64,000 bases of DNA, from contig CAZWPE010000001.1 in NCBI GenBank assembly GCA_964635635.1, positions 107,774 to 171,773 on the forward strand, read 5' to 3'. Positions 23-50,252 of this stretch are shown piece by piece. How positions within the stretch are numbered: the stretch's first letter is position 1; every line of letters begins with the position of its first letter. The notes beneath the pieces were generated by a model that was given only the letters and a program-made list of their open reading frames with translations, was not told the origin of the DNA and searched no databases. Position numbers and translations under genes: made by a program. This DNA is from an uncultured Myxococcaceae bacterium. Its GTDB lineage: Bacteria > Myxococcota > UBA727 > JABDBI01.

Positions 23-2053
23 TTGCGTTTAAACTTTGCGCTAAGTTTTCACGCCGTGAAAGACTCTCTCAATGAAAAAGCCTATCGATTGATGTTAACT
101 TCCCGCGAGCTGGATAAGAAAATGCTTATTCTGCTGCGCCAGGGTAAAAGCTTCTTTCATATTGGTTGCATGGGTCATGAAGCTGTTCAGGCAGCAGCTT
201 CCCTAAGCTTAGACCCTAAACGAGATTATTTATTTCCCTACTATCGCGATCAAACTTTTGTTTTGGGTATGGGGATGACACCTGAAGAATGTTTGTTGGG
301 ATTCTTGGGCCGTGAAGGGGACCCGAGCTCTAATGGTCGCCAAATGCCTCAGCACTATGGACACCCCAAACTGAATATTCCGAGTAGTTCGTCATCGACG
401 GGAACGCAGTTTTTGCAGGCTGTGGGTTGTGCGTTTGCTTCCATGCGACTGGATAAGCCTAAAGACTTGGCAGTAACGGTTGTTTGTTCGGGTGATGGCA
501 CGACCAGTCAGGGAGATTTTCATGAGGCTTTAAGTTGGGCCTCGCGTGAAAAAGCGCCAGTGATATTTTTGGTTGAGAACAATGGCTACGCAATTAGTGT
601 TCCGATTGCAGACCAGCGTCCTGGGGCGCAAATTGCCGATATGCATGGAGCGTACCCAGGCTTGAGCTTTATGCGGGTTGATGGTTGCGATTTCGAAGCC
701 AGCCATGTTGTATTTCAAAAAGCTGTGGCCCATGCACGTACAGGAAAGGGACCTGTTTTAATTGATGCGAGTGTTGTGCGCTTGTTGCCACACAGTTCAT
801 CGGATGATGATAAAAAATATCGCCCAGCCAAAGATTTAGAGGCTGAAAAAAAACGTGATCCCTTACTTGTAAACAAGCATCTTGTTTCTGCAAAGCGTTT
901 GAAAGCTTTAGAACAAGAAGTGTTTGAAGAAGTTGACGCTGCGGCGGATAGAGCGCTGGCAGCACCGGTGCCTAAGAGTGAAGATGCCTTGAGTTATGTT
1001 TATTCTCAGGCTTGTCCGAAGACCTCACCCTCGGTCCCTCTCCACCCAGTGGAGAGGGAAGGGGGGGCAGAGACCGTCCTCGTCGACGCCATCAACCGTG
1101 CACTGGCCGAAGAGCTTGAACGTGCTCCAAAAGTGCTCGTTTTTGGTCAAGATGTCGCTGGTGGTAAAGGTGGCGTATTTACGGCTACTAGGGGTCTTAC
1201 AAAGCAATTTGGCGAAGACAGGTGTTTTAATGCGCCGCTGGCTGAGTCGAGTATTGTTGGTGTGGCAATTGGAATGGCTTTGCGCGGCTTTAAACCAGTA
1301 CCAGAGATTCAATTTGGCGATTATATTTGGACTGCCATGATGCAGATTCGAAATGAACTGAGTGTCATGCGTTACCGCTCAAATAACGCCTGGAAAGCAC
1401 CTGTTGTAATTCGAGTTCCTGTTGGTGGTTATATCCACGGTGGTCTTTGTCACTCCCAAAATATTGAAGCCACATTTTCGCACTTTCCAGGTCTCAAGAT
1501 TGCCTATCCGTGTACGGCACTGGATGCTTATGGGCTGCTCAAAGAAGCCATTCGAGGCGATGACCCAGTTTTGTTTTTAGAACATAAGGGCCTGTACAGA
1601 CAAAACTTTGCCAAGAGTGTGTTGCCTGCTGGAACAGATTGGACCTTGCCATTTGGGGTTGCAGCAGTTCGCCGTGCTGGCAAGGACATGACCATTGTAA
1701 CTTATGGGGCACTGGTTCAACGTTCTATCGAAGTCGCGCGTGAACTTGAGGGTGAAGTTGATATTGAAGTGATCGACTTACGTACGATTAGACCGTATGA
1801 TTTTGATTCGGTCGCTGAAAGCGTCAAAAAGACAGGCCGGGTATTGGTTTTACACGAAGATACGCGCTTTATGGGTTTTGGGGCTGAGATAGCCGCTGAA
1901 ATTTCTGAGAAATGCTTCCAATATTTGGATGCCCCCGTTACTAGGCTGGCTGGAAAAGAATCACCCATCCCATATGCAGGCAACTTAGAAGAACAAGTCT
2001 TGCCTCAGGCTTCTTGGATTCAGGATTCAGTTAGAACTTTAATGGCTTATTAG
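23..2053 (+). CDS. Fused E1 alpha/beta subunit of a TPP-dependent 2-oxoacid (pyruvate/branched-chain) dehydrogenase; true start uncertain (TTG 23, GTG 56 or ATG 92)
   Basis: N-terminal half matches the E1 alpha TPP-binding region (YRLMLTSRELDKK, GDG..ENNGYAIS); C-terminal half matches E1 beta (VLVFGQDVAGGKGGVF, PLAESSIVGVAIGMA). An in-frame stop sits immediately upstream at 20-22. Confidence 0.85.
   Translation: MRLNFALSFHAVKDSLNEKAYRLMLTSRELDKKMLILLRQGKSFFHIGCMGHEAVQAAASLSLDPKRDYLFPYYRDQTFVLGMGMTPEECLLGFLGREGDPSSNGRQMPQHYGHPKLNIPSSSSSTGTQFLQAVGCAFASMRLDKPKDLAVTVVCSGDGTTSQGDFHEALSWASREKAPVIFLVENNGYAISVPIADQRPGAQIADMHGAYPGLSFMRVDGCDFEASHVVFQKAVAHARTGKGPVLIDASVVRLLPHSSSDDDKKYRPAKDLEAEKKRDPLLVNKHLVSAKRLKALEQEVFEEVDAAADRALAAPVPKSEDALSYVYSQACPKTSPSVPLHPVEREGGAETVLVDAINRALAEELERAPKVLVFGQDVAGGKGGVFTATRGLTKQFGEDRCFNAPLAESSIVGVAIGMALRGFKPVPEIQFGDYIWTAMMQIRNELSVMRYRSNNAWKAPVVIRVPVGGYIHGGLCHSQNIEATFSHFPGLKIAYPCTALDAYGLLKEAIRGDDPVLFLEHKGLYRQNFAKSVLPAGTDWTLPFGVAAVRRAGKDMTIVTYGALVQRSIEVARELEGEVDIEVIDLRTIRPYDFDSVAESVKKTGRVLVLHEDTRFMGFGAEIAAEISEKCFQYLDAPVTRLAGKESPIPYAGNLEEQVLPQASWIQDSVRTLMAY
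1029..1072. repeat. Family-1 palindromic element copy (CCCTCTCCAC-cca-GTGGAGAGGG + G-run), in-frame inside the E1 alpha/beta linker
   Basis: Perfect 10-bp inverted repeat; near-identical to the copy at 29407-29428. Confidence 0.7.
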
Positions 2054-2235: not shown

Positions 2236-3429
2236 ATGGCTCAGGAGCTTTCTTGGAAGGATTCGTTTGTTCGCGACTATTATTTAAAGAACCGTCTATC
2301 TTTGGCGTTTTATTCGAACTGCACCTTTGCTTTTGCAGATGAGGCGGGCTGCCCGGACGCTTGCTCGCGGGCGGCAAAGCTGATCGCTGCCGTTCGCCGT
2401 CAAAGACCGCCGGTGATTACGAGCCGAATTCCCAAACTGGGACGTGATGATTTGCGACAGTCCAAGGGAGATTGGATCGTGGTGGCTTGTTTGGGGCAGT
2501 TCTATCTTTTAAAGCAGGGCGCCACTGAAAATACATTGCGTGCTTTGGTTCATGATGCGCGTTGTTCTGCTCCAGAGCCTGAAGTTGGCTGGTTAACCCT
2601 GCTCCCCAGAGATGCTTTCGCTGAAGTTTACCCGCTGCTCGGCAAGAATGTAGAGCTTATTCAAAATGCAGTTATTCTTGTGGCTCTTGATTTAGATGCG
2701 GCTCCCAAAAATGATAACGAGTTTGCTCATGCTTTAGCCAATGGGGGTTTGGGTAACCGATGGTTTGATTTGTCGCTGCAATTGATTGTCACTGGCAACG
2801 GTAGAGCAGGGGGGAATACGGAACACACTGTTTATGATTCTTTGCCAGCTGGTACTTATGTGAATTCACTGATGAGTGATGTTCCTGCCGCTAGCGAAGA
2901 CCAAGGGTATGAAAAAATTCGTTGGCCCAATGACCTTAAAATTAGCCAGGCCATTGCTGAGGCGAAAAATTTTGCAGAGGCAGAAGTTTCTAAGCGCGAA
3001 ATACATTGCGTTCGAACCAGGGCGTTTGAACGAGATGTTGATGTTCAAATGGCGATCCAGTTGGCAGCAAAAGAAATATTCGGAGCACCACAGGTCACCA
3101 GTGAAGCTCTTAGTATGGCGCATATGCCAGAGGGACGTTATGCAACCATATTTTTTGAGTCACCTGAAGATTTGCAAAATCACCGGCAAAGAATCAAATC
3201 AGCCAAACTAGGCGAACCAATTCAAGTATTACCATGTGAAATCGTCACTTCAAACGCAGGGCACCATGAACACATTCCACTCATAGGCTTCACAGATACT
3301 GACCCAAATATTGTTGGAATCTCATATATTATGAAGCCAACCGAGACAGTATTTCACATTAAAGCAGATGGAGTTCACAAAGAAAAAGCCCGGAAGTATG
3401 CTTACTTTTTGAACCAGCTGTTGAGGTAG
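2236..3429 (+). CDS. Choline/carnitine O-acyltransferase family protein (short form lacking about 150 N-terminal residues relative to eukaryotic CrAT)
   Basis: NRWFDLSLQLIVTGNGRAGGNTEHTVYDS matches the catalytic-His block NRW[FY]DKSxQ..EH of carnitine acyltransferases. Downstream blocks (DVQMAIQLA, TSEALSMAHMPEGR, IVGISY) align with the CrAT C-terminal half. Confidence 0.7.
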   Translation: MAQELSWKDSFVRDYYLKNRLSLAFYSNCTFAFADEAGCPDACSRAAKLIAAVRRQRPPVITSRIPKLGRDDLRQSKGDWIVVACLGQFYLLKQGATENTLRALVHDARCSAPEPEVGWLTLLPRDAFAEVYPLLGKNVELIQNAVILVALDLDAAPKNDNEFAHALANGGLGNRWFDLSLQLIVTGNGRAGGNTEHTVYDSLPAGTYVNSLMSDVPAASEDQGYEKIRWPNDLKISQAIAEAKNFAEAEVSKREIHCVRTRAFERDVDVQMAIQLAAKEIFGAPQVTSEALSMAHMPEGRYATIFFESPEDLQNHRQRIKSAKLGEPIQVLPCEIVTSNAGHHEHIPLIGFTDTDPNIVGISYIMKPTETVFHIKADGVHKEKARKYAYFLNQLLR

Positions 3430-4808
3430 TTATACAGTTGTTTGGAACTGTCAAACAACCATGCAGCACCTGGCATTTCTTCTCTCTCTAGAGAAATCTC
3501 TCTTTCAATGTCTTCAAGTTTACTTTGAATTGTTGGATCATTTGGGTGGAATTTCATTAGTAGATTGCGTGCCATGTCGACAGTCTTCCGTGATTCAGCA
3601 TCTAAATCTAAAAAACTCAAAAGAGTTTCTTTGACTTTTTCATCTCTAAAGAAATTAGCGGCTTCATTGCGCACATACTCAGACCTATCCTCTAGGCATT
3701 GAGCAATGGCTTGATGAATCTTGGGATCTTGAGGCTTGATGGCGGCTAAAGCCTGGATGGCGGCTTCTCTTGCTCTCGGATATTCATTGCTCAGGCATTG
3801 AGCAATGGCCTGATGAATGCCGGGAGCTTGAGGTTTGATAAAGGCTAAAGCCCGAACGGCGGCTTGCCTTGCCTCACGATTTTCACGCTGCAGCAATTGA
3901 ACAAGGAATTGATGAATCTCTTGATCTTGAAGTTTGATAGAGGTTAAAGCGTCAACGGCGGCTTGCCTTACAAACCAATTTTCATCCTCCAGGCATTGAG
4001 CAATGGCTTGACGAATCTTGGGAACTTGAGGCTTGATGGCGGCTAAAGCCTGGAGGGCGGCTTGCCTTACCTCCGCATATGGATTCTCCAGGTGTTGAGC
4101 GATGGCTTGATGAATCTTGGGATCTTGAGGGTTGATGGCTTTTAAAGCCTGAACGGCAGCTTGCCTTACACTCCAATCTTTATCCCTCAGGGATTCAACG
4201 ATGACTTGATGAATCTTGGGATCTTGAGGCTTAATCGCTTCGAAGGCACTGATGGTAGCTATGCGTATGTGTGGATTGAGATCATTCAAATACCGAGCCA
4301 TGACTTCAAGGATATCTGAATCGATTGGTTTAACCTTAGCTAATGTTTCTAGAACGTCAACTATGTCTCCTCCTGAAGAACGTTCCGATTGCAATACTTC
4401 TTTAACGAGAGTTATGACAGCAGTTTCGTTACCCTTTTCAGCTGCAGAGCACAATTCAGCAACAGCGTTATTTGGATTTTTGTTGAATAAGCGCTGCCAA
4501 GTGGCTTCTGAGTAGTGCTGAATCCCCTCTTGGAATCCTTTGGAGGTTTTAGCTTGAGTCAAGAGACTTTTTGAAGAGTCACCTGAAAATGCAGCGATAC
4601 GTGCAGTAAAAGCAGGATTTTTAAACAATTCGTTTTTAGGAGCCGCGATGGCTTCTTTCTTGGTTTCAGGTACACGCAAAGGGCTCAAAGCTGCTTCATC
4701 TCTGCTCTGTCGATATTGGTCAGGTAGTTGCTTATACTCATCGCCCTTGCGGTTTTGTTGCTGTTGGTTTTCTTGAACAGAAATTTTTCCAGTAATACCT
4801 ATCTTCAT
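3402..4808 (-). CDS. HEAT/PBS-lyase-like repeat protein
   Basis: About 6-7 tandem 33-aa units (PQDPKIHQAIAQCLE..VRQAAVQALAAIK) typical of HEAT-like repeats. Confidence 0.8.
   Translation of the reverse strand: MKIGITGKISVQENQQQQNRKGDEYKQLPDQYRQSRDEAALSPLRVPETKKEAIAAPKNELFKNPAFTARIAAFSGDSSKSLLTQAKTSKGFQEGIQHYSEATWQRLFNKNPNNAVAELCSAAEKGNETAVITLVKEVLQSERSSGGDIVDVLETLAKVKPIDSDILEVMARYLNDLNPHIRIATISAFEAIKPQDPKIHQVIVESLRDKDWSVRQAAVQALKAINPQDPKIHQAIAQHLENPYAEVRQAALQALAAIKPQVPKIRQAIAQCLEDENWFVRQAAVDALTSIKLQDQEIHQFLVQLLQRENREARQAAVRALAFIKPQAPGIHQAIAQCLSNEYPRAREAAIQALAAIKPQDPKIHQAIAQCLEDRSEYVRNEAANFFRDEKVKETLLSFLDLDAESRKTVDMARNLLMKFHPNDPTIQSKLEDIEREISLEREEMPGAAWLFDSSKQLYNYLNSWFKK
3690..4290 (-). repeat. 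Tandem 99-bp DNA repeats (about 6 copies) encoding the HEAT-like units
   Basis: Recurring caggcattgagcaatggcttgatgaatcttgggatcttgaggcttgatggcggctaaagcc.. with a period of about 99 bp. Confidence 0.75.
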
Positions 4809-6425: not shown

Positions 6426-9364
6426 TGCTGCAAACTCAAATCGAAGCTTTTGGTCTTAAACTTTTTGAGGAAATGCGTGGTGAAAAACCAGGCATTTTTA
6501 ACAGCGACTACTGGCAAGGAAAATTGATGGACTGGGTCATGAAAGATCCCAGTTTTAAAATCGACATGTTTCGTTTTGTCGATGTTTTGCCTCAACTTGA
6601 AACTTCAGGCCAGATTGCTGCCCACGTTCGTGAGTACTTGCTGAAAGAAGGCCGTCAGCTCCCCGCAGTGATTAACGTAGCCCTTAAAGCGGCCGCCAGT
6701 GGTTTGACCGCTGGAATAGCTGCAACCAGCATTCGTAAAAATATCAGCGATATGGCTGAGCGATTTATTGTGGGGCGTGATGCCAAGAGTGCGCTGTCTG
6801 AACTGCAAGCTTTGCATAAACAAGGCATCGCTTTTACCGTCGATTTGCTCGGCGAGTATACCTTGAGTGATGCTGAGGCAGATGAGTACAAAAATCGCTA
6901 TCTAGATTTGATTGCCAATATTGCAGGTGAAGCTGCCAAGTGGAAACCGGATTCAGTCATCGACGCAGTCCCACGCGTGAATGTGTCTGTGAAGGTCAGT
7001 GCGCTTGACCCCCAAGTGAAGGCTGTTGACCCGAAAGGTTCGGTGGAACGTCTGAAACAACGCCTGAGACCTCTGTTTGAAATGGCCATGAAGAATGGCG
7101 TATTTTTGAACCTTGATCTTGAGCAGTGGGAAGTTCATGGCATTACTTATGACCTGTTTGAAGAACTTCTTTTGGAGCCAGAGTTTGCAAAATATCCCCA
7201 TTTTGGGATTGTGATTCAGGCTTATTTGAAAGACTCGCTGCGTGATGCAGAACGTCTTCTTGCTCTCGCCAAAAAACGAGGGACCCCAGTTGGTGTTCGT
7301 TTGGTTAAAGGCGCATACTGGGACTTCGAAGTCGTGAACGCGAAGCAAAAGGGTTTCGAATGCCCAGTGTTTACGCAAAAAGCTGACTCTGATGTGAACT
7401 ACGAGCGCATCAGCAAGTTTTTGTTGGATCACATTGAGCATTTTAGGCCAGCATTTGGAAGTCACAATCTGCGTTCCATTAGTCACGCGATTGTTTATGC
7501 GGATAGTAAAAAAATCCCAGCGACGGCTTATGAAATTCAGATGCTTTATGGAATGGCAGAGCCAGAACGTAAGATTTTACGTTCTCGTGGAAACCTGGTT
7601 CGTGTTTATGCCCCGATAGGAGAGTTGCTTCCGGGTATGGCGTATTTGGTTCGGCGTTTGCTTGAAAACACGTCGAACTCTGGATTTTTGAAGCTTTCAC
7701 ATCAAGATGATGTGGATCCGAAGTTACTTTTGGTTGAGCCTGTTTCTCTCCCTCTCCCCTTGAGGGAGAGGGCTGGGGTGAGGGGTGAGTTTGAAAACTG
7801 CCCTTGGCTAGACTTTACGCGTGAAGAATCTCGAACAGCTTTTGCCAAAGCCATTGAAGCCTGGAAGCCTAAATTTCCAGTCACAGTCCCAGTGGTTATT
7901 GCCGGTGAAAAACAGGTCGGTGAGTCCGTGTTTGAACGCGTGACTCCCAACGATGGGCAAACTTTAGTGGCTAAAGTAGAGCTGGCCAGCAAAGCACAGG
8001 CTGAAAAAGCGATTCAAATTGCCACGCGTGCTTACCCTGCATGGCGAGATGGAGCTTTGGCTGAACGTGTAGAACGTTTAAACAAACTGGCTGATATATT
8101 GGAACGCGACCGTTTTGAATTAGCTGCGCTCATGTCCCATGAAGTGGCTAAGCCGTGGATTGAAGCGGATGCAGATGTCGGCGAAGCGGTTGATTTCTGC
8201 CGCTATTATGCTCAGCAGGCGCTCACAACACTTGCGCCCAGAAAACAAGGCAGTCTTTGGGGCGAAGATAATATTTTAAGCTATGAGGGCAGGGGGCCAA
8301 CACTTGTGATTGCTCCTTGGAATTTTCCCTTGGCCATTTTGTGCGGCATGGCAGCAGCAGCTCTTGTTGCTGGTAACTCTGTGATCTTAAAACCAGCAGA
8401 AACATCCAGTTTAACAGCAAAGATGCTGTTCGACCGTATGCTCGAAGCAGGTATTCCGAGTGACGTTGTCCAGTTCTTGCCGGGCCGTGGTTCTGAAGTA
8501 GGGGCGTATTTAGTTGAGCATCCACAAATTGCGCAAATTGCATTTACGGGCAGCAAGGAAGTTGGCCTGCAAATTATCGAAAAAGCGGCGCGAGTTCAGC
8601 ATGGCCAAGCACAAGTTAAGCGTGTGGTCTGCGAAATGGGCGGTAAAAATGCGATTGTGATAGACGACGATGCAGACTTAGATGAAGCAGCATTAGGTGT
8701 TATCCACAGTGCGTTTGGTTATGCAGGTCAAAAGTGTTCGGCAGCTTCGCGAATCATTGTCCATGCCAATGTTTATGACAGGTTTAAAAACCGGTTGGTT
8801 GAAGCTTGCAAGAGTCTATGCATTGCGCCTGCCACGAAACCTGGCTGTGGTGTTCCTCCGGTGGTTGATGCCAAATCCCAAAATCGCTTGCTCACTGAGA
8901 TTGAGTTGGCTGCTCGTGAACACAAATTGCTAATAAGTATCCCCCCTTTGCAAAAGGGGGGTCAGGGGGGATTTTTTGTCCCTGTAACGCTATTTGAAGT
9001 CCAAAACTCAAAATGCCGATTGATGCAAACAGAACTCTTTGGTCCAGTAATTGCGATTGCCAAGGCCAAGGACTTTGAAGAAGCCATTCAAATCGCAAAC
9101 GATACTGAGTTTGCTTTGACGGGTGCTGTTTATTCACGCAGCCCTAAGAATCTTGAATATGCACGAAAGGCCTTTAAGGTTGGCAATCTGTATCTTAACC
9201 GTGGAAGTACGGGTGCCATGGTTCATCGACAGCCATTTGGTGGCTTCAAAATGAGCGGCATTGGAACCAAAGCGGGTGGGCCAGATTACTTGATGCACTT
9301 TGTGGACCCCAGAGTGACCACTGAGAATACTTTGAGGCGTGGATTTACGCCGGATTTGGAATGA
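6425..9364 (+). CDS. putA: Bifunctional proline dehydrogenase / delta-1-pyrroline-5-carboxylate dehydrogenase PutA (no N-terminal DNA-binding domain)
   Basis: N-terminal PRODH TIM-barrel motifs followed by an ALDH domain (VCEMGGKNA, catalytic QKCSAASR, EEFGP-like ELFGPV). Confidence 0.9.
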   Translation: MLQTQIEAFGLKLFEEMRGEKPGIFNSDYWQGKLMDWVMKDPSFKIDMFRFVDVLPQLETSGQIAAHVREYLLKEGRQLPAVINVALKAAASGLTAGIAATSIRKNISDMAERFIVGRDAKSALSELQALHKQGIAFTVDLLGEYTLSDAEADEYKNRYLDLIANIAGEAAKWKPDSVIDAVPRVNVSVKVSALDPQVKAVDPKGSVERLKQRLRPLFEMAMKNGVFLNLDLEQWEVHGITYDLFEELLLEPEFAKYPHFGIVIQAYLKDSLRDAERLLALAKKRGTPVGVRLVKGAYWDFEVVNAKQKGFECPVFTQKADSDVNYERISKFLLDHIEHFRPAFGSHNLRSISHAIVYADSKKIPATAYEIQMLYGMAEPERKILRSRGNLVRVYAPIGELLPGMAYLVRRLLENTSNSGFLKLSHQDDVDPKLLLVEPVSLPLPLRERAGVRGEFENCPWLDFTREESRTAFAKAIEAWKPKFPVTVPVVIAGEKQVGESVFERVTPNDGQTLVAKVELASKAQAEKAIQIATRAYPAWRDGALAERVERLNKLADILERDRFELAALMSHEVAKPWIEADADVGEAVDFCRYYAQQALTTLAPRKQGSLWGEDNILSYEGRGPTLVIAPWNFPLAILCGMAAAALVAGNSVILKPAETSSLTAKMLFDRMLEAGIPSDVVQFLPGRGSEVGAYLVEHPQIAQIAFTGSKEVGLQIIEKAARVQHGQAQVKRVVCEMGGKNAIVIDDDADLDEAALGVIHSAFGYAGQKCSAASRIIVHANVYDRFKNRLVEACKSLCIAPATKPGCGVPPVVDAKSQNRLLTEIELAAREHKLLISIPPLQKGGQGGFFVPVTLFEVQNSKCRLMQTELFGPVIAIAKAKDFEEAIQIANDTEFALTGAVYSRSPKNLEYARKAFKVGNLYLNRGSTGAMVHRQPFGGFKMSGIGTKAGGPDYLMHFVDPRVTTENTLRRGFTPDLE
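7746..7789. repeat. Family-1 palindromic element copy (CCCTCTCCCCTTGAGGGAGAGGGCTGGGGTGAGGGGT), in-frame in putA
   Basis: 38-bp stretch identical except for one base to 26520-26557. Confidence 0.75.
8937..8978. repeat. Family-2 palindromic element copy (ATCCCCCCTTTGCAAAAGGGGGGTCAGGGGGGATTTTTTG), in-frame in the putA ALDH domain
   Basis: About 41-bp motif shared with 44469-44507. Confidence 0.75.
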
Positions 9365-25739: not shown

Positions 25740-26164
25740 AAGACCTGTATCAAGAACTTATTTTGGATCATTATCAACATCCGCATCATTTTGGGGTACT
25801 TGAAAATCCAACCCATCATGCGCATGGTTCAAACCCGCTTTGTGGTGATGAGTTAGATGTCACGCTTTTGGTTGAAGATGGGCGTATCAAAGATATTGCA
25901 TTTAAAGGTGATGGTTGTGCGATTTCGAAAGCATCTGCTTCGATCATGACAGATGAGCTTGTAGGCAAGACGCTTGAAGAGACAAAAGTTTTATTTGACG
26001 ATTTTCATGAACTCTTAACGGCTGATGGCGATGGAAGTAGGTTGAACAAAGCCAAAGCATTTTCAGGCGTTCGAGAATTCCCGGCGCGAGTTAAATGCGC
26101 GACACTTGCTTGGCATACGTTCCAATCAGCATTGAATAACCAAAATTTGGCGACAACGGAGTAA
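25733..26164 (+). CDS. sufU: SufU / NifU-like sulfur-transfer scaffold
   Basis: NPLCGDE, GDGCAISKASAS and CATLAW cysteine motifs. Confidence 0.8.
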   Translation: MLEDLYQELILDHYQHPHHFGVLENPTHHAHGSNPLCGDELDVTLLVEDGRIKDIAFKGDGCAISKASASIMTDELVGKTLEETKVLFDDFHELLTADGDGSRLNKAKAFSGVREFPARVKCATLAWHTFQSALNNQNLATTE

Positions 26165-26171
26165 ATATTTT

Positions 26172-26747
26172 ATGCATATGTATGGCGGCGGCGTAAATGT
26201 AAAATTGTCCAGAGATGTGATGGGGATTCAAATCCCTGATGGTAATCCTGTGACCTTGGAACAAGGCCATGAAGTTTACATTATGCAAGTTCTGGGCGGC
26301 ATGTTTACGGTTGAAACAGAATGGGGTTATTTGGCTCGGGTAGACGGTAAAGATGCTGATGCTTTAGGACAAGAAATCCCGCCGGAACGCCAAAAGCCAG
26401 ATTGGTCAAAGTTTACGACACTTGAAGATGCTGCGTGGGCCCAGCTTAGAACTTGTTATGATCCTGAAATCCCAGTCAATATTGTTGAATTAGGGCTTAT
26501 CTATAAGCTACAGCTGGCTCCCTCTCCCCTTGAGGGAGAGGGCCGGGGTGAGGGGTCCGTGTTGCACGTCGATATGACTTTAACTGCACCCGGCTGTGGA
26601 ATGGGTGAGGTTTTGCGCAATGATATTGAAACCAAATTGCTGGATATCCCTGGGGTAAAGGCTGTGGTCATCGACCTGACCTTTGACCCGCCCTGGAACT
26701 CAGAAATGATGTCTGATGCAGCTAGATTGCAGCTGGGGATGATGTAA
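26172..26747 (+). CDS. SufT-like DUF59 (MIP18 family) protein with an about 90-aa N-terminal extension and an in-frame palindromic-element insert
   Basis: C-terminal TAPGCGMG and DUF59 blocks. Located at the end of the suf cluster. Confidence 0.65.
   Translation: MHMYGGGVNVKLSRDVMGIQIPDGNPVTLEQGHEVYIMQVLGGMFTVETEWGYLARVDGKDADALGQEIPPERQKPDWSKFTTLEDAAWAQLRTCYDPEIPVNIVELGLIYKLQLAPSPLEGEGRGEGSVLHVDMTLTAPGCGMGEVLRNDIETKLLDIPGVKAVVIDLTFDPPWNSEMMSDAARLQLGMM
26517..26558. repeat. Family-1 palindromic element copy, in-frame in the SufT-like gene (encodes SPLEGEGRGEGS)
   Basis: Near-identical to the putA copy at 7746-7789. Confidence 0.75.
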
Positions 26748-43841: not shown

Positions 43842-44062
43842 ATCGTAACAATGTGACCACGGGTGAGTACGTGCTGGGCTTTGAGTTTTGTCACCCAGTC
43901 GTTTTGCTCTAAGAGCTCGAGCGCGGACTCCAAAAATTTGATTTTAACAAGCTCATGAGCTTCGAGGGCAGCGTCAATCTCTTTGAGAATGCTATCTGTA
44001 ATTCCGTTTTTACCAACCAAAACAATTGGTTTTAAATGATGTGCCTGAGCTTTTAAATCCAC
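43736..44062 (-). CDS. yhbY: YhbY/CRS1 (CRM-domain) RNA-binding protein
   Basis: HHLKPIVLVGKNGITDSILKEIDAALEAHELVKIK matches YhbY. The 3' end overlaps the TSUP gene convergently. Confidence 0.7.
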   Translation of the reverse strand: MDLKAQAHHLKPIVLVGKNGITDSILKEIDAALEAHELVKIKFLESALELLEQNDWVTKLKAQHVLTRGHIVTIYRERKRRTETKSKKPAKSLVKTRTGKKTARRAPR

Positions 44063-44100
44063 ACTGTACGAATAGGATACTTTTTAGTAGCTTGCAATGT

Positions 44101-44847
44101 GTGAAAGTAGCTTTATGTCAGTTTAACCCGGTGGTTGGTGCGATTACTCAAAATGGAGCTCGCTTATTAGAGTTTGCGCACAAGGCTGGAAAGAATGGCG
44201 CGGATTTGATGTTGGCGCCTGAATTGGCGCTTTGTGGCTATCCACCTAAAGATTTAATGGGCAATTCTGATTTTCACGCTGCATGTAAGGCTCAACTTAC
44301 CCAGCTTGCCGAGCAAGCGCCGATCCCAACGATTATGGGTGCGCCTGACAGTTTATATAACGCAGCATTCTACTGCTTTGCAGGACAGCACCAAGTTGTG
44401 GCTCGCAAACAGCTGCTCCCTAATTATCAAGTTTTTGACGATAAACGCTATTTTAAGCCTGGCGGTTATATTCCCCCCTTTGAAACAGGGGGGCAGGGGG
44501 GATTTTCTGTGGGCATCACAATTTGCGAAGACGCTTGGAACGATGCTGAATTCTGGCCAAATCGGCGATATGATTTAGACCCAGTCAATGAACTGGTGAA
44601 CCGTGATAACCCAGACATATTGGTGACGCTTATGGCATCCCCATTTGAACCAGGTAAAGCAGCGATTCGCGATGCCATGTTTTCACATATGGCTAAGAGA
44701 TATTCCAAGCCTGTTTTGGTGGTTGGCCAAGTGGGTGCCAATGATGGGCTGATTTTTGAGGGTGGCTCTATGATGATTGATGCCCAGGGGGAGATTGTGC
44801 ACCGTGCTGCCGATTTTCAGGAGGATTTAGTCATATGCGAACTGTAG
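44101..44847 (+). CDS. Nitrilase/CN-hydrolase (glutaminase) domain protein of NAD synthetase, encoded separately; GTG start
   Basis: VKVALCQFNPVVGAI.. and GITICEDAW catalytic-Cys block. Carries a family-2 palindromic insert. The ORF opens at 44026, but the yhbY start on the other strand is at 44062. Confidence 0.7.
   Translation: MKVALCQFNPVVGAITQNGARLLEFAHKAGKNGADLMLAPELALCGYPPKDLMGNSDFHAACKAQLTQLAEQAPIPTIMGAPDSLYNAAFYCFAGQHQVVARKQLLPNYQVFDDKRYFKPGGYIPPFETGGQGGFSVGITICEDAWNDAEFWPNRRYDLDPVNELVNRDNPDILVTLMASPFEPGKAAIRDAMFSHMAKRYSKPVLVVGQVGANDGLIFEGGSMMIDAQGEIVHRAADFQEDLVICEL
44469..44507. repeat. Family-2 palindromic element copy, in-frame in the nadE nitrilase domain (encodes IPPFETGGQGGFS)
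   Basis: ATTCCCCCCTTTGAAACAGGGGGGCAGGGGGGATTTTCTG; compare 8937-8978. Confidence 0.75.
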
Positions 44848-45650
44848 CGCAGGCAATTGTTCTTGGAATTCGTGACTACGCCCAAAAACTAGGTGCTCCA
44901 GGGGTGTTAATTGGCTTGTCAGGCGGCATTGATTCGGCTGTAACAGCAGCTCTTGCCGTTCAAGCATTGGGAGCAGCGCGTGTGATTGGTGTTCGCATGC
45001 CAAGCAAGTTTAGCTCTGAACACTCTTTGGAAGATGCTGAACTTCTTGCAAATACGCTTGGCATCGAATTGCGTACGATCGATATTGAACCCGGTGTGCA
45101 GGCACTTCGAGAGATGCTTGACCTTCAAAAACCAGTCAGTGACCAAAATCTCCAATCTCGTGTGCGTGGACTGACATTGATGGGTCTTTCGAATGACACG
45201 GGTTACTTTGTGCTCTCAACAGGCAATAAAAGCGAACTCGCGATGGGTTACACAACCCTTTATGGTGATATGTGCGGCGCTTTAATGCCGATTGGTGATT
45301 TGTACAAAACACAAGTGTATGAGTTGGCCAGGTTGTTAGATGGAATCCCCGAACGAAGTATTACCAAGCCTCCAAGCGCAGAGCTGGCGCCGGGACAACT
45401 AGACCAAGACACGTTGCCGCCGTATGAGTTGCTTGATGTTGTGCTTGAGCGCTATCTCGAAAGCGATATGGCTGCGAGCAAGATTGCTGCTGAGACAGGT
45501 ATGTCCGTGAACGATATCGAGCGCATTGTTAAACAGGTGAATTCTTGTGAGTACAAACGTAAACAAGCACCGCCGATTTTAATGGTTTCAAAACGTGTGT
45601 TTGGGGAAGCTCGCCGGTGGCCGATTGTGGCCTGTTACCCAAAGCTTTAG
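44835..45650 (+). CDS. nadE: NAD+ synthetase (ATP pyrophosphatase domain)
   Basis: PP-loop GLSGGIDSAVTAALA. caggagga RBS 8 nt upstream. 13-nt overlap with the nitrilase ORF in a different frame. Confidence 0.85.
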   Translation: MRTVAQAIVLGIRDYAQKLGAPGVLIGLSGGIDSAVTAALAVQALGAARVIGVRMPSKFSSEHSLEDAELLANTLGIELRTIDIEPGVQALREMLDLQKPVSDQNLQSRVRGLTLMGLSNDTGYFVLSTGNKSELAMGYTTLYGDMCGALMPIGDLYKTQVYELARLLDGIPERSITKPPSAELAPGQLDQDTLPPYELLDVVLERYLESDMAASKIAAETGMSVNDIERIVKQVNSCEYKRKQAPPILMVSKRVFGEARRWPIVACYPKL

Positions 45651-45657
45651 CGCAGGA

Positions 45658-45747
45658 TGGCGGAGAGAGAGGGATTCGAACCCTCGATACGGTTTCCCGT
45701 ATACGCCCTTAGCAGGGGCGCGCCTTCAGCCTCTCGGCCATCTCTCC
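45658..45747 (-). tRNA. tRNA-Ser (anticodon GCU) with long variable arm and encoded CCA
   Basis: The reverse complement GGAGAGATGGCCGAGAGGCTGAAGGCGCGCCCCTGCTAAGGGCGTATACGGGAAACCGTATCGAGGGTTCGAATCCCTCTCTCTCCGCCA folds as a class II tRNA with anticodon loop CTGCTAA. Confidence 0.9.
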
Positions 45748-49389: not shown

Positions 49390-49617
49390 AAATAGAAGTC
49401 CTCCCAAATAGGAAGAAACGCAATTACGCAATCTTTGTCCCATTTGCAAACCGGCTCAAGTCCCTGAAAATATTTTGATTTTAAAATATTAAAGAAATAT
49501 TTTGTTTTGTAAAGAAAATAATCTAGAACGCTCGACCCATCGTATGGGTTTAAGACAAGATAATAATAGATAAAAGGTTTTCGTTTGTGGAAACCCAGGT
49601 CTAAGGAGGATTTTACA

Positions 49618-50199
49618 ATGGCTGAAAAAGTCGTACGTGCAGGGATTGAGCGTAAAAAAGGGTGGCTTTACTATTTAGATAAGAACTTAAATGTATATAG
49701 AGTTAAAATGGTTCGCGGTGGCGAAAAGAAAGCAAAGGGTGAACGCCCAGAGCTGGTTCTTAAGACCGATATGAGAAGAGACCAGAACTATTTGTATTAC
49801 GTAGATAAGGCAGGGGACATTTCCCGTGTCAAGGCAAGCCGAGGAGGCACTGCCCGTAAAGGTAAAAAACGCCGCAGAACCGCTGCGCAAAGGAAAGCAA
49901 TGTTAGAGAAGAAGAAAGCTCTGAAGAAGAAGAAAGCTGAAGCTAAGAAGAAAAAAGCCGCTGCTAAGAAGAAGAAATCAGCAGCTTTGAAAGCTAAGAA
50001 GAAAGCTGCAGCAGCTAAGAAGAAAGTAGCTAAGAAGTCTAAGAAAGTTAAGGCTAAAAAAGCTGTTAAAAAGCCAAAAGCTAAGAAAGTAGTCAAAAAA
50101 GCTAAGGCTAAAAAAGCTGTCAAAAAGCCAGCTAAGAAAAAAGCCGCTCCTAAAAAGAGCCATGGCAAAAAGAAAGTAGCTAAGAAGAAAGCTGCTTAA
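49618..50199 (+). CDS. Histone H1-like Lys/Ala-rich protein with a duplicated N-terminal module
   Basis: taaggagga RBS 7 nt upstream. Two 35-aa repeats (GWLYYLDKNLNVYRVK.. / NYLYYVDKAGDISRVK..) followed by an about 100-aa AKKKK-type tail encoded by low-complexity tandem DNA. Confidence 0.7.
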   Translation: MAEKVVRAGIERKKGWLYYLDKNLNVYRVKMVRGGEKKAKGERPELVLKTDMRRDQNYLYYVDKAGDISRVKASRGGTARKGKKRRRTAAQRKAMLEKKKALKKKKAEAKKKKAAAKKKKSAALKAKKKAAAAKKKVAKKSKKVKAKKAVKKPKAKKVVKKAKAKKAVKKPAKKKAAPKKSHGKKKVAKKKAA

Positions 50200-50209
50200 T
50201 AGCGCTTTC

Positions 50210-50252
50210 CCTATAACCCTCTCCCTCTGGGAGAGGGCAGGGAGAGGGATAG
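50210..50252. repeat. Family-1-like GA/CT palindromic element, intergenic, immediately upstream of a terminator
   Basis: CCCTCTCCCTCTGGGAGAGGGCAGGGAGAGGG. Confidence 0.6.

Follow-up and report, generated by a model that had tools for sequence, protein, structure and literature searches.

A C6/G6 repeat of the intrastrand triplex type, probably inserted in-frame into tolerant loops of a putA and a nitrilase gene in an uncultured Myxococcaceae bacterium

Within a 64,000 nt stretch of the genome of an uncultured Myxococcaceae bacterium (GenBank assembly GCA_964635635.1, contig CAZWPE010000001.1, positions 107,774 to 171,773 of the forward strand; the whole stretch is here called the window), two unrelated genes, putA and the gene for the nitrilase-type glutaminase of a split NAD synthetase, carry near-identical C6/G6 elements which are read in-frame. 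We consider it probable that both are copies of a dispersed, non-coding-type intrastrand triplex repeat (class II purine motif), which was inserted in both genes and has persisted there in tolerant loops. The C6/G6 element is a sequence subfamily of the known triplex-type repeats BoxC, PIT and TMECO rather than a new kind of repeat. Repeats of this type have been noted since the 1990s and the Escherichia coli copies were described as strictly intergenic, while copies of the sister subfamily reported here appear to be translated as parts of essential enzymes and of phage portal and terminase proteins. As far as the literature searched shows, the homopolymer-arm subfamily is new, as are its breadth over phyla and phages, the way in which it keeps the frame and is apparently translated within conserved genes, and the conservation of its synonymous sites; searches of the literature by DNA string and by peptide string returned nothing relevant.

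The putA copy (TATCCCCCCTTTGCAAAAGGGGGGTCAGGGGGGATTTTTTGT, 8938-8979) and the copy in the nitrilase gene (TATTCCCCCCTTTGAAACAGGGGGGCAGGGGGGATTTTCTGT, 44469-44510) were described in a first-pass annotation of the window as about 90% identical, and a global alignment indeed gave 36/40 identical bases with two 1-nt gaps. Both are in-frame, as was also stated there, and yield the peptides IPPLQKGGQGGFF in PutA and IPPFETGGQGGFS in the nitrilase, with the element-coded stretch of the nitrilase stopping 5 residues upstream of the ICEDAW block, and with putA carrying a further element of another family (family 1) at 7748-7786. Peptides of PutA that would span the insert are LLISIPPLQK and GGQGGFFVPVTLFEVQNSK. 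The elements were thus rightly recognised, with limits that we have redrawn: because the unit consists of three 9-nt arms and two loops and includes the conserved ATT after the last G-run, its boundaries are better placed at 8941-8973 and 44473-44504 (Table 1). The 33-mer strand of the unit is CCCCCCTTTGCAAAAGGGGGGTCAGGGGGGATT. The core pattern was matched a mean of 0.00-0.01 times in 100 dinucleotide-preserving shuffles of the window, and the predicted DNA hairpin of the putA copy has an energy of -9.8 kcal/mol (ViennaRNA, hairpins only).

Intrastrand triplex motifs were defined by Holder et al. (2015, Nucleic Acids Res 43:10126, PMC4666352), who cite earlier work by Hoyne, Maher and colleagues. 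In the class II purine motif of that study, a pyrimidine (Y) arm, a purine (R) arm and a reverse-Hoogsteen arm follow in this order on a single strand, and the search definition allowed stems of 6-15 nt, loops of 1-6 nt and at most one mismatch. The order Y, R and reverse-Hoogsteen arm is found in both window copies (CCCCCCTTT / AAAGGGGGG / GGGGGGATT), with 9/9 Watson-Crick stem pairs and loops of 3 and 3 nt in putA. In the nitrilase gene, 8/9 stem positions pair, with a single T.C mismatch, and the loops measure 3 and 2 nt. The third arm follows the mirror rule (G*G:C, A/T*A:T) at 9/9 positions in both copies. The term palindromic, as used in the first-pass annotation, therefore fits the hairpin arms and falls short of the full unit, since the third G-run with its ATT mirrors the purine arm, which assigns the element to the intrastrand-triplex-type repeats, a class already described. 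Likewise, the idea of a second family with the same coding-tolerant behaviour was retained in its behavioural part, and the separateness of the two families was not: they are two sequence subfamilies of one class, family 1 having the TMECO pattern CCCTCNCCC-N3-6-GGGNGAGGG-N3-GGGNGAGGG, which equals the BoxC and PIT elements of Maher and colleagues (PMC4666352). The C6/G6 element, with its arms C6T3/A3G6, lies outside the TMECO/BoxC sequence pattern.

Further copies were collected by scanning one genome per species with the pattern CCCCCCTTT-N5-7-GGGGGG-N2-4-GGGGGG, which gave at least 120 genome loci in many phyla, and at least 120 loci were found in IMG/VR. A BLAST search of phage and plasmid collections with a 47-nt consensus gave no hit, which is probably due to low-complexity filtering. 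For every perfect 9-nt pyrimidine/purine hairpin in the collected loci and the window, the arm that follows was then scored as repeating the purine arm either directly or in mirror image, A and T both being allowed opposite A. For asymmetric purine arms with a third arm, 389 cases were matched better by the mirror copy and 59 by the direct repeat (p = 1e-60), with examples such as AAAGAGGGG>GGGGAGATT, GGGGGAGGG>GGGTGGGGG, AGGAGGGGA>AGGGGAGGT and GGGAAGGGG>GGGGTTAGG, and many of the arm variants obeying the mirror rule fell outside all search patterns. The number of A:T pairs at the hairpin foot covaried with the length of the A/T tail (Fisher p = 2e-15), as copies with two foot pairs, mostly cyanobacterial and ending in GGGGGGATC, mostly had a two-base A/T tail, and copies with three pairs had a tail of three or more. 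In about 280 three-arm copies, the bases following the last G-run were A (95%), T (98%), T (91%) and T (79%), at positions beyond the end of the search pattern (GGGGGG). The conservation of ATT may be explained by the triplex code, as GGGGGGATT placed antiparallel to AAAGGGGGG would give six triplets of the type G*G:C and then those of the types A*A:T and T*A:T.

The first-pass annotation had proposed in-frame, lineage-specific insertion of a dispersed repeat, and had named general presence of the peptide in PutA and NadE orthologues as the finding that would speak against it. The homologue alignments supported the insertion, because the peptide is confined to the closest homologues. Only one of 60 PutA homologues has the peptide, and this is the closest one (P0001, 89% identity, as FPPFEKGGQGGFF), with the remaining homologues, including P0002 (74%), having the shorter L-x-x-G-x-x-P-x-G-G-[YF]-[YF]. 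Among 49 nitrilase homologues the peptide was present only in P0121, which is identical to the window protein, and in P0122 (68%), and there was no insert in P0124 (57%) and more distant nitrilases. In the P0123 nitrilase (69%, locus L244), the sequence CCT CCT TGG ACA AAG TGG GGC after RYF replaces the full element, and this protein has 7 residues fewer than that of the window and is below the family norm as well; judged by its sequence, the site looks like a decayed or truncated copy with a deletion, which would fit the reports of deletions around TMECO. The C-terminal GGFF of the PutA insert aligns with the conserved GG[YF][YF] of aldehyde dehydrogenases (ALDH), and PPFE..G of the nitrilase aligns with the usual x-x-F-E-x-x-G. 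Relative to the homologue consensus, PutA is longer by a net 4 aa only and the nitrilase by 3 aa, and therefore the element either overlays similar native codons or came with a small flanking loss. A metagenome scan with PutA gave relatives of at most 62% identity only, and the 563 kb used as control held a single copy.

Both inserts are located in a turn or loop between two beta-strands in AlphaFold models, which settles in the affirmative whether they fall in loops, as the first-pass annotation had asked. In the AlphaFold2 model of the nitrilase (mean predicted local distance difference test score, pLDDT, of 95.1), FET forms strand 131-133, GGQGG the turn at 134-138 and FSVGITI strand 139-145, which leads up to the catalytic Cys146. 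In the model of the PutA ALDH domain (mean pLDDT 94.6), the coded residues occupy loop 355-368, which is flanked by strands 349-354 and 369-374. The sole run of at least three residues with pLDDT < 50 in the model (359-361) is within this loop.

Comparison with the filled relatives showed conservation at the nucleotide level. For residues identical between the window nitrilase and P0122, the same codon was used in 11/12 cases inside the element versus 82/167 outside (p = 0.005), and between the window putA and that of P0001, 34/36 aligned element bases match versus 77% for the gene (p = 0.006). These two putA copies differ by a 1-nt register shift, which is offset by an extra T in loop 2 and barely alters the peptide. 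Across 34 nt, P0001's copy in putA does not differ from P0122's copy in the nitrilase gene. Selection at the DNA level, copy correction and independent re-insertion could each account for the conservation at synonymous sites.

Presence in coding sequence is not limited to the window, as about 30% of the genome hits among the matches listed are within long open stretches. Host genes elsewhere, with the translations read by eye, encode a radical-SAM protein, CbiG/CobJ (two copies), RecJ, LeuRS, a Ser/Thr kinase (with the copy between the HRD and DFG motifs), NagZ and an Lhr-type helicase. The NagZ-like glycoside hydrolase open reading frame (ORF) of locus L054 has the inserts STPPRSPLLRGGLRGGRRL and PPLPPFTKGGMGGF in one gene, and the Lhr-like helicase ORF of locus L111 similarly combines SPPAPLFQRWEPGAG and PPFEKGGQGGF. 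In a phage terminase lineage, a two-unit doublet corresponds to a net +27 aa in-frame when compared with homologues lacking the doublet.

The reading frame was assessed at loci with a GC content of at most 55%, for copies flanked on each side by at least 80 open codons of one strand. Among such two-sided copies, 21/25 were in-frame and stop-free, where one third is expected (p = 3e-7). The remaining 119/144 copies were not two-sided, and most copies are therefore non-coding. Coding copies are depleted relative to the typical coding density of bacteria, and the survivors keep the frame; the 5/6 triplex-type copies of the window that are in-frame in long ORFs represent an unusually high share (p = 6e-4). 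Intragenic copies were found in both orientations relative to the host gene, with products that are always of the form PP[FL]xKGGxGG[FI], or PPxPP[LF]xKGG in reverse orientation, and coding copies survive because the homopolymer runs keep the unit open in nearly all reading frames. The frame statistics suggest that the insert is translated and not skipped.

Carriers among the genome matches listed included Nitrospirota, delta-, beta- and gammaproteobacteria, cyanobacteria, Planctomycetota, Chloroflexota and further groups, and isolates with complete genomes were among them. The copies comprise 281 three-arm forms, 29 four-arm palindromes with the layout AAATC6-nnn-C6TTT-nnn-AAAG6-nnn-G6ATTT, and 20 bare hairpins, and inverted doublets (R..F and F..R) are frequent. 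In aligned copies a T precedes the C-run in 78%, and the sequence past ATTT is random. Of 5426 complete E. coli genomes, 4306 had sequences resembling family 1, one example being located between mrcB and hrpB. Cyanobacterial copies (L006, L043, L050, L067, L069, L087, L094, L096 and L108) have a TT/AA hairpin foot and the tail GGGGGGATC(GC), which is sometimes GATCGC, half of the HIP1 octamer GCGATCGC.

Copies were also found in phages. Shared gene clusters identified 64/120 listed IMG/VR loci with the C6/G6 element (L123-L242) as Mu-like, and two or more Mu-like gene families were present in 46/120 of the listed C6/G6 loci versus 15/120 of the listed loci of TMECO type. Mu-like phage contigs (for example L153, L172, L224, L137 and L132) often have several copies each, frequently in portal, Mu F, terminase and gp16 genes and many of them in-frame, with the portal copies clustering in a single variable Pro/Gly-rich linker. 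On phage contigs, the strand with the two purine arms was the C-skewed strand in 79/109 cases for C6/G6 and in 77/108 for TMECO-type elements (L327-L446), and in the genome loci orientation had no link to GC skew (36 vs 47). The six copies in the window are oriented opposite to the bias on phage contigs.

Of the described repeats, BoxC/PIT/TMECO are closest to the C6/G6 element. They share the order of a 9-nt Y arm, a loop, a 9-nt R arm, a loop of about 3 nt and a 9-nt mirror purine/T arm on one strand, and are likewise G/C-rich, highly conserved among copies, dispersed, single or in inverted pairs, and without a known mobilising gene, and they differ in the arms, which are C6T3 / A3G6 / G6AT2 in the C6/G6 element. 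TMECO elements were reported from 262 proteobacterial genomes, with the E. coli K-12 copies always intergenic and unlinked to phages, plasmids or transposons (PMC4666352), whereas C6/G6 copies are found in-frame in conserved genes, in many phyla and commonly in Mu-like phage contigs. Neither the C6/G6 consensus nor coding copies are mentioned in the main text of Holder et al. (2015) or in those of its supplements that were examined (PMC4666352).

Two further repeat types resemble the element in part. The Rickettsia palindromic elements (RPE; Ogata et al. 2000, as described in PMC3184786) are selfish-type repeats that are in-frame in protein genes and translated, but according to that description they measure about 105-146 bp, are limited to Rickettsia and have another sequence without a triplex-type third arm. 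With a unit of 32-33 nt in an unrelated host, the C6/G6 element has in-frame behaviour alone in common with them. The small dispersed repeats (SDR) of Nostocaceae are hairpin-forming sequences of 21-27 nt (Elhai et al. 2008, Genome Res 18:1484), and one of them, SDR5, reportedly inserts in the HIP1 octamer. Compared by description only, SDR are reported absent outside Nostocaceae whereas the C6/G6 family spans many phyla, and the cyanobacterial subfamily may correspond to the SDR elements that sit in HIP1 in Nostocaceae.

We propose that in the single-stranded state the first two arms, CCCCCCTTT and AAAGGGGGG, would form a Watson-Crick hairpin, and that the third arm would then lie antiparallel in its major groove with the triplets given above. 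The arrival of a copy in putA and in the nitrilase gene would date back to a common ancestor with the closest metagenomic relatives. Persistence could be favoured by the unit being open in nearly all frames and coding a Pro-Pro-(Phe/Leu)-x-(Lys/Thr)-Gly-Gly-x-Gly-Gly turn, and by the position of both copies between two beta-strands, where added residues may be tolerated. As to spread, we can only guess, with low confidence, that replication forks or repair gaps are where copying takes place, through an intermediate that is single-stranded and folded back, possibly with the help of a trans-acting enzyme, and with phages as carriers between hosts.

Several points weigh against the proposal of an inserted triplex repeat. 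TMECO formed a triplex in isolated single strands only, with no triplex in duplex DNA and no protection from dimethyl sulfate in vivo (PMC4666352), so that the fold may be short-lived or without relevance. The triplex code would take any A or T in the tail, yet it is ATT(T) that is observed, and something more specific, such as a protein or an enzyme site, may read it. A gain of +3/+4 aa for a unit of 32-33 nt is not a simple insertion, and no empty site of >75% nucleotide identity was found, so that the event is not reconstructable from the loci compared; in an all-against-all comparison of filled and empty sites among the loci, there was no clean pair above about 75% identity except for the nitrilase pair L243/L244. 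Synonymous conservation could equally result from recent independent insertion or copy correction and not from selection. Finally, the p-values of the mirror and covariation tests are overstated because related copies enter as independent, with the direction still clear.

A more far-reaching reading, which we regard as possible at best, is that the element is active mobile DNA, with the fold-back triple-helical strand as the copying substrate, borne across phyla by Mu-like phages and under DNA-level selection once it is in genes. If true, there would be a conserved non-B-DNA signal within the coding sequence of housekeeping and phage structural genes, and the selection might act on, for example, replication or transcription pause sites or recombination hot spots. 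No transposase family recurred near copies in the genome loci, where just common families such as histidine kinases and ABC ATPases were seen.

It is unlikely that the unit is of the repetitive extragenic palindromic (REP/REPIN) type, in which a hairpin with a conserved tail is moved as single-stranded DNA by a once-per-genome RAYT (HUH/Y1) transposase. REP and REPIN sequences are G/C-rich hairpins of 20-40 nt with a conserved one-sided tag and inverted doublets (PMC3116915, PMC3733652), and the C6/G6 unit has such a hairpin with a one-sided tail, REPIN-like R..F and F..R doublets, no target-site duplication visible at the window copies or the terminase doublet, and in the window six copies in one orientation on the G-skewed strand. 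However, it has a T before the C-run and ATTT after the G-run in place of a GTAG or CGTC tag, many copies are intragenic, where REPs are confined to extragenic DNA, and the mirror-arm rule is alien to REPs. Neither a RAYT motif in the window nor a recurring transposase family was found, and the single RAYT-like gene in 240 loci (L007) is flanked by another REP, GCACAGCC-TGGAAA-GGCTGTGC. The independence of orientation from GC skew at the genome loci also argues against this type. Mobilisation by RAYT was considered unlikely, as neither the tag nor, in the window and the 240 loci, the association was seen, and a replication-strand bias was rejected, since the window copies share their orientation yet the genome loci lack a link to GC skew. 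The RAYT-like gene of L007 (4530-5160; MPDHVHLIL ... YIRNNPVKTGL) has its own REP, GCACAGCCTGGAAAGGCTGTGCCACC, on both sides, which is unrelated to the C6/G6 element 1.8 kb off.

Less probable still is a MITE (a miniature transposable element with inverted repeats) that has the ends AAATCCCCCC...GGGGGGATTT and is mobilised by a DDE transposase, perhaps the one encoded by Mu-like transposable phages. In the four-arm copies the terminal inverted repeats are perfect, and additional sequence sometimes separates the arms, and the Mu-like share of the listed IMG/VR loci with their often multiple copies would suit such an origin. Against it, the three-arm units lacking the left terminal repeat outnumber the four-arm units, so that both outer arms are present in only 29 of about 330 copies, and no target-site duplication could be demonstrated. 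Mu-type transposon ends have TG...CA termini. The ends of the element lack these, and the many-copy genome loci are without Mu genes (1/120 listed).

We give little credence to an element acting at the RNA level, be it a translation-regulating mRNA hairpin or a bypassed or spliced segment like the yeast mitochondrial byp elements or T4 gene 60, in favour of which stand the stable hairpin within coding sequence and the conserved synonymous sites. The two-sided copies kept the frame and lacked stops beyond chance, and bypassed segments are free of such a need; the coded residues fit the AlphaFold models as strand-turn-strand or loop, and intragenic copies occur in both orientations. Rfam gave one tRNA only for the window at the gathering threshold, and only sub-threshold miRNA/snoRNA noise for six copy-rich loci at E <= 0.1, and purine-motif triplexes do not form in RNA (PMC4666352). 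A native protein motif, or chance or convergence giving like Pro/Gly loop codons in two unrelated enzymes, can practically be dismissed: there are Pro and Gly codons in the native sequence near both sites and GGFF aligns with the ALDH motif, but the shuffles gave next to no matches, the peptide is missing from all but the closest homologues, the same string is found in hundreds of unrelated loci, mostly non-coding, and the CCC and GGG codons were kept while flanking synonymous sites diverged.

Since sites with and without the repeat in conserved genes can be matched up at single-residue level, insertions can be dated and their boundaries mapped. Pro/Gly-rich PP[FL]xKGGxGG inserts in predicted metagenome proteins become recognisable as repeat-derived, and the element marks loops which tolerate insertion.

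The host genes and the other triplex-type copies of the window are listed in Table 1. All six copies have a single orientation, on the G-skewed strand, and the five in-frame copies are located in the linker between the E1 alpha and beta parts of the dehydrogenase, the PutA interdomain linker, the PutA ALDH domain, the DUF59 protein and the nitrilase. The interdomain copy of putA and the DUF59 copy fit the published TMECO/BoxC pattern exactly, and the latter adds a clean +11 aa at a hairpin turn when compared with 2cu6. The copy at 50217-50248, the sole one outside a long ORF, has the TMECO pattern except for a second loop of 2 nt instead of 3.

Table 1. Triplex-type repeats, their arms and their host genes in the window
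Feature	Position	Strand	Remarks
C6/G6 triplex-type repeat in putA	8941..8973	+	33 nt; codes (I)PPLQKGGQGGF
putA copy, Y arm CCCCCCTTT	8941-8949	+	
putA copy, loop 1 GCA	8950-8952	+	
putA copy, purine arm AAAGGGGGG	8953-8961	+	
putA copy, loop 2 TCA	8962-8964	+	
putA copy, mirror (third) arm GGGGGGATT	8965-8973	+	
C6/G6 triplex-type repeat in nitrilase (glutaminase) gene of split NAD synthetase	44473..44504	+	codes PPFETGGQGGF
Nitrilase copy, Y arm CCCCCCTTT	44473-44481 (arm)	+	followed by loop GAA
Nitrilase copy, purine arm ACAGGGGGG	44485-44493 (arm)	+	one stem mismatch; followed by loop CA
Nitrilase copy, third arm GGGGGGATT	44496-44504	+	
putA, bifunctional proline dehydrogenase / pyrroline-5-carboxylate (P5C) dehydrogenase, 992 aa	6386..9364	+	Pfam PutA_N + Pro_dh + Aldedh
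Stand-alone CN_hydrolase (nitrilase-type) gene	44026..44847	+	second host gene
NAD synthase domain gene (nadE proper)	44835..45650	+	13-nt overlap with nitrilase gene
Family 1 sister element, putA interdomain linker	7750..7784	+	CCCTCTCCC-CTTGA-GGGAGAGGG-CTG-GGGTGAGGG; codes LPLPLRERAGVRGE
Family 1 (TMECO-pattern) copy in DUF59/FeS_assembly_P gene (ORF 26136-26747)	26520..26554	+	in-frame
Degenerate family 1-like copy, E1_dh / Transket_pyr linker of fused 2-oxoacid dehydrogenase E1 gene (ORF 23-2053)	1034..1072	+	in-frame
Family 1 copy CCCTCTCCC-TCT-GGGAGAGGG-CA-GGGAGAGGG	50217..50248	+	

The best solved relative of PutA is 5ur2 (1031 bits). The split of the NAD synthetase into a nitrilase and a synthase gene is natural, because the relative at locus L245 likewise has split nitrilase and NAD_synthase genes side by side and because a public NCBI assembly includes an identical 248-aa nitrilase product (P0121). 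The shared layout in L245 also led to the rejection of a frameshift in nadE. A tRNA gene (Rfam RF00005, 57 bits) is located directly downstream of the NAD synthase gene, at 45661-45747 on the minus strand. The copy at 50217-50248 directly follows ORF 49585-50199, in which AAG/GCT-rich repeats of 21 and 54 nt encode a Lys/Ala-rich, histone-H1-like tail. Five tandem 99-nt units (66-77% identical) were found at 3687-4334 within the minus-strand ORF 3402-4808, implying a protein repeat of 33 residues.

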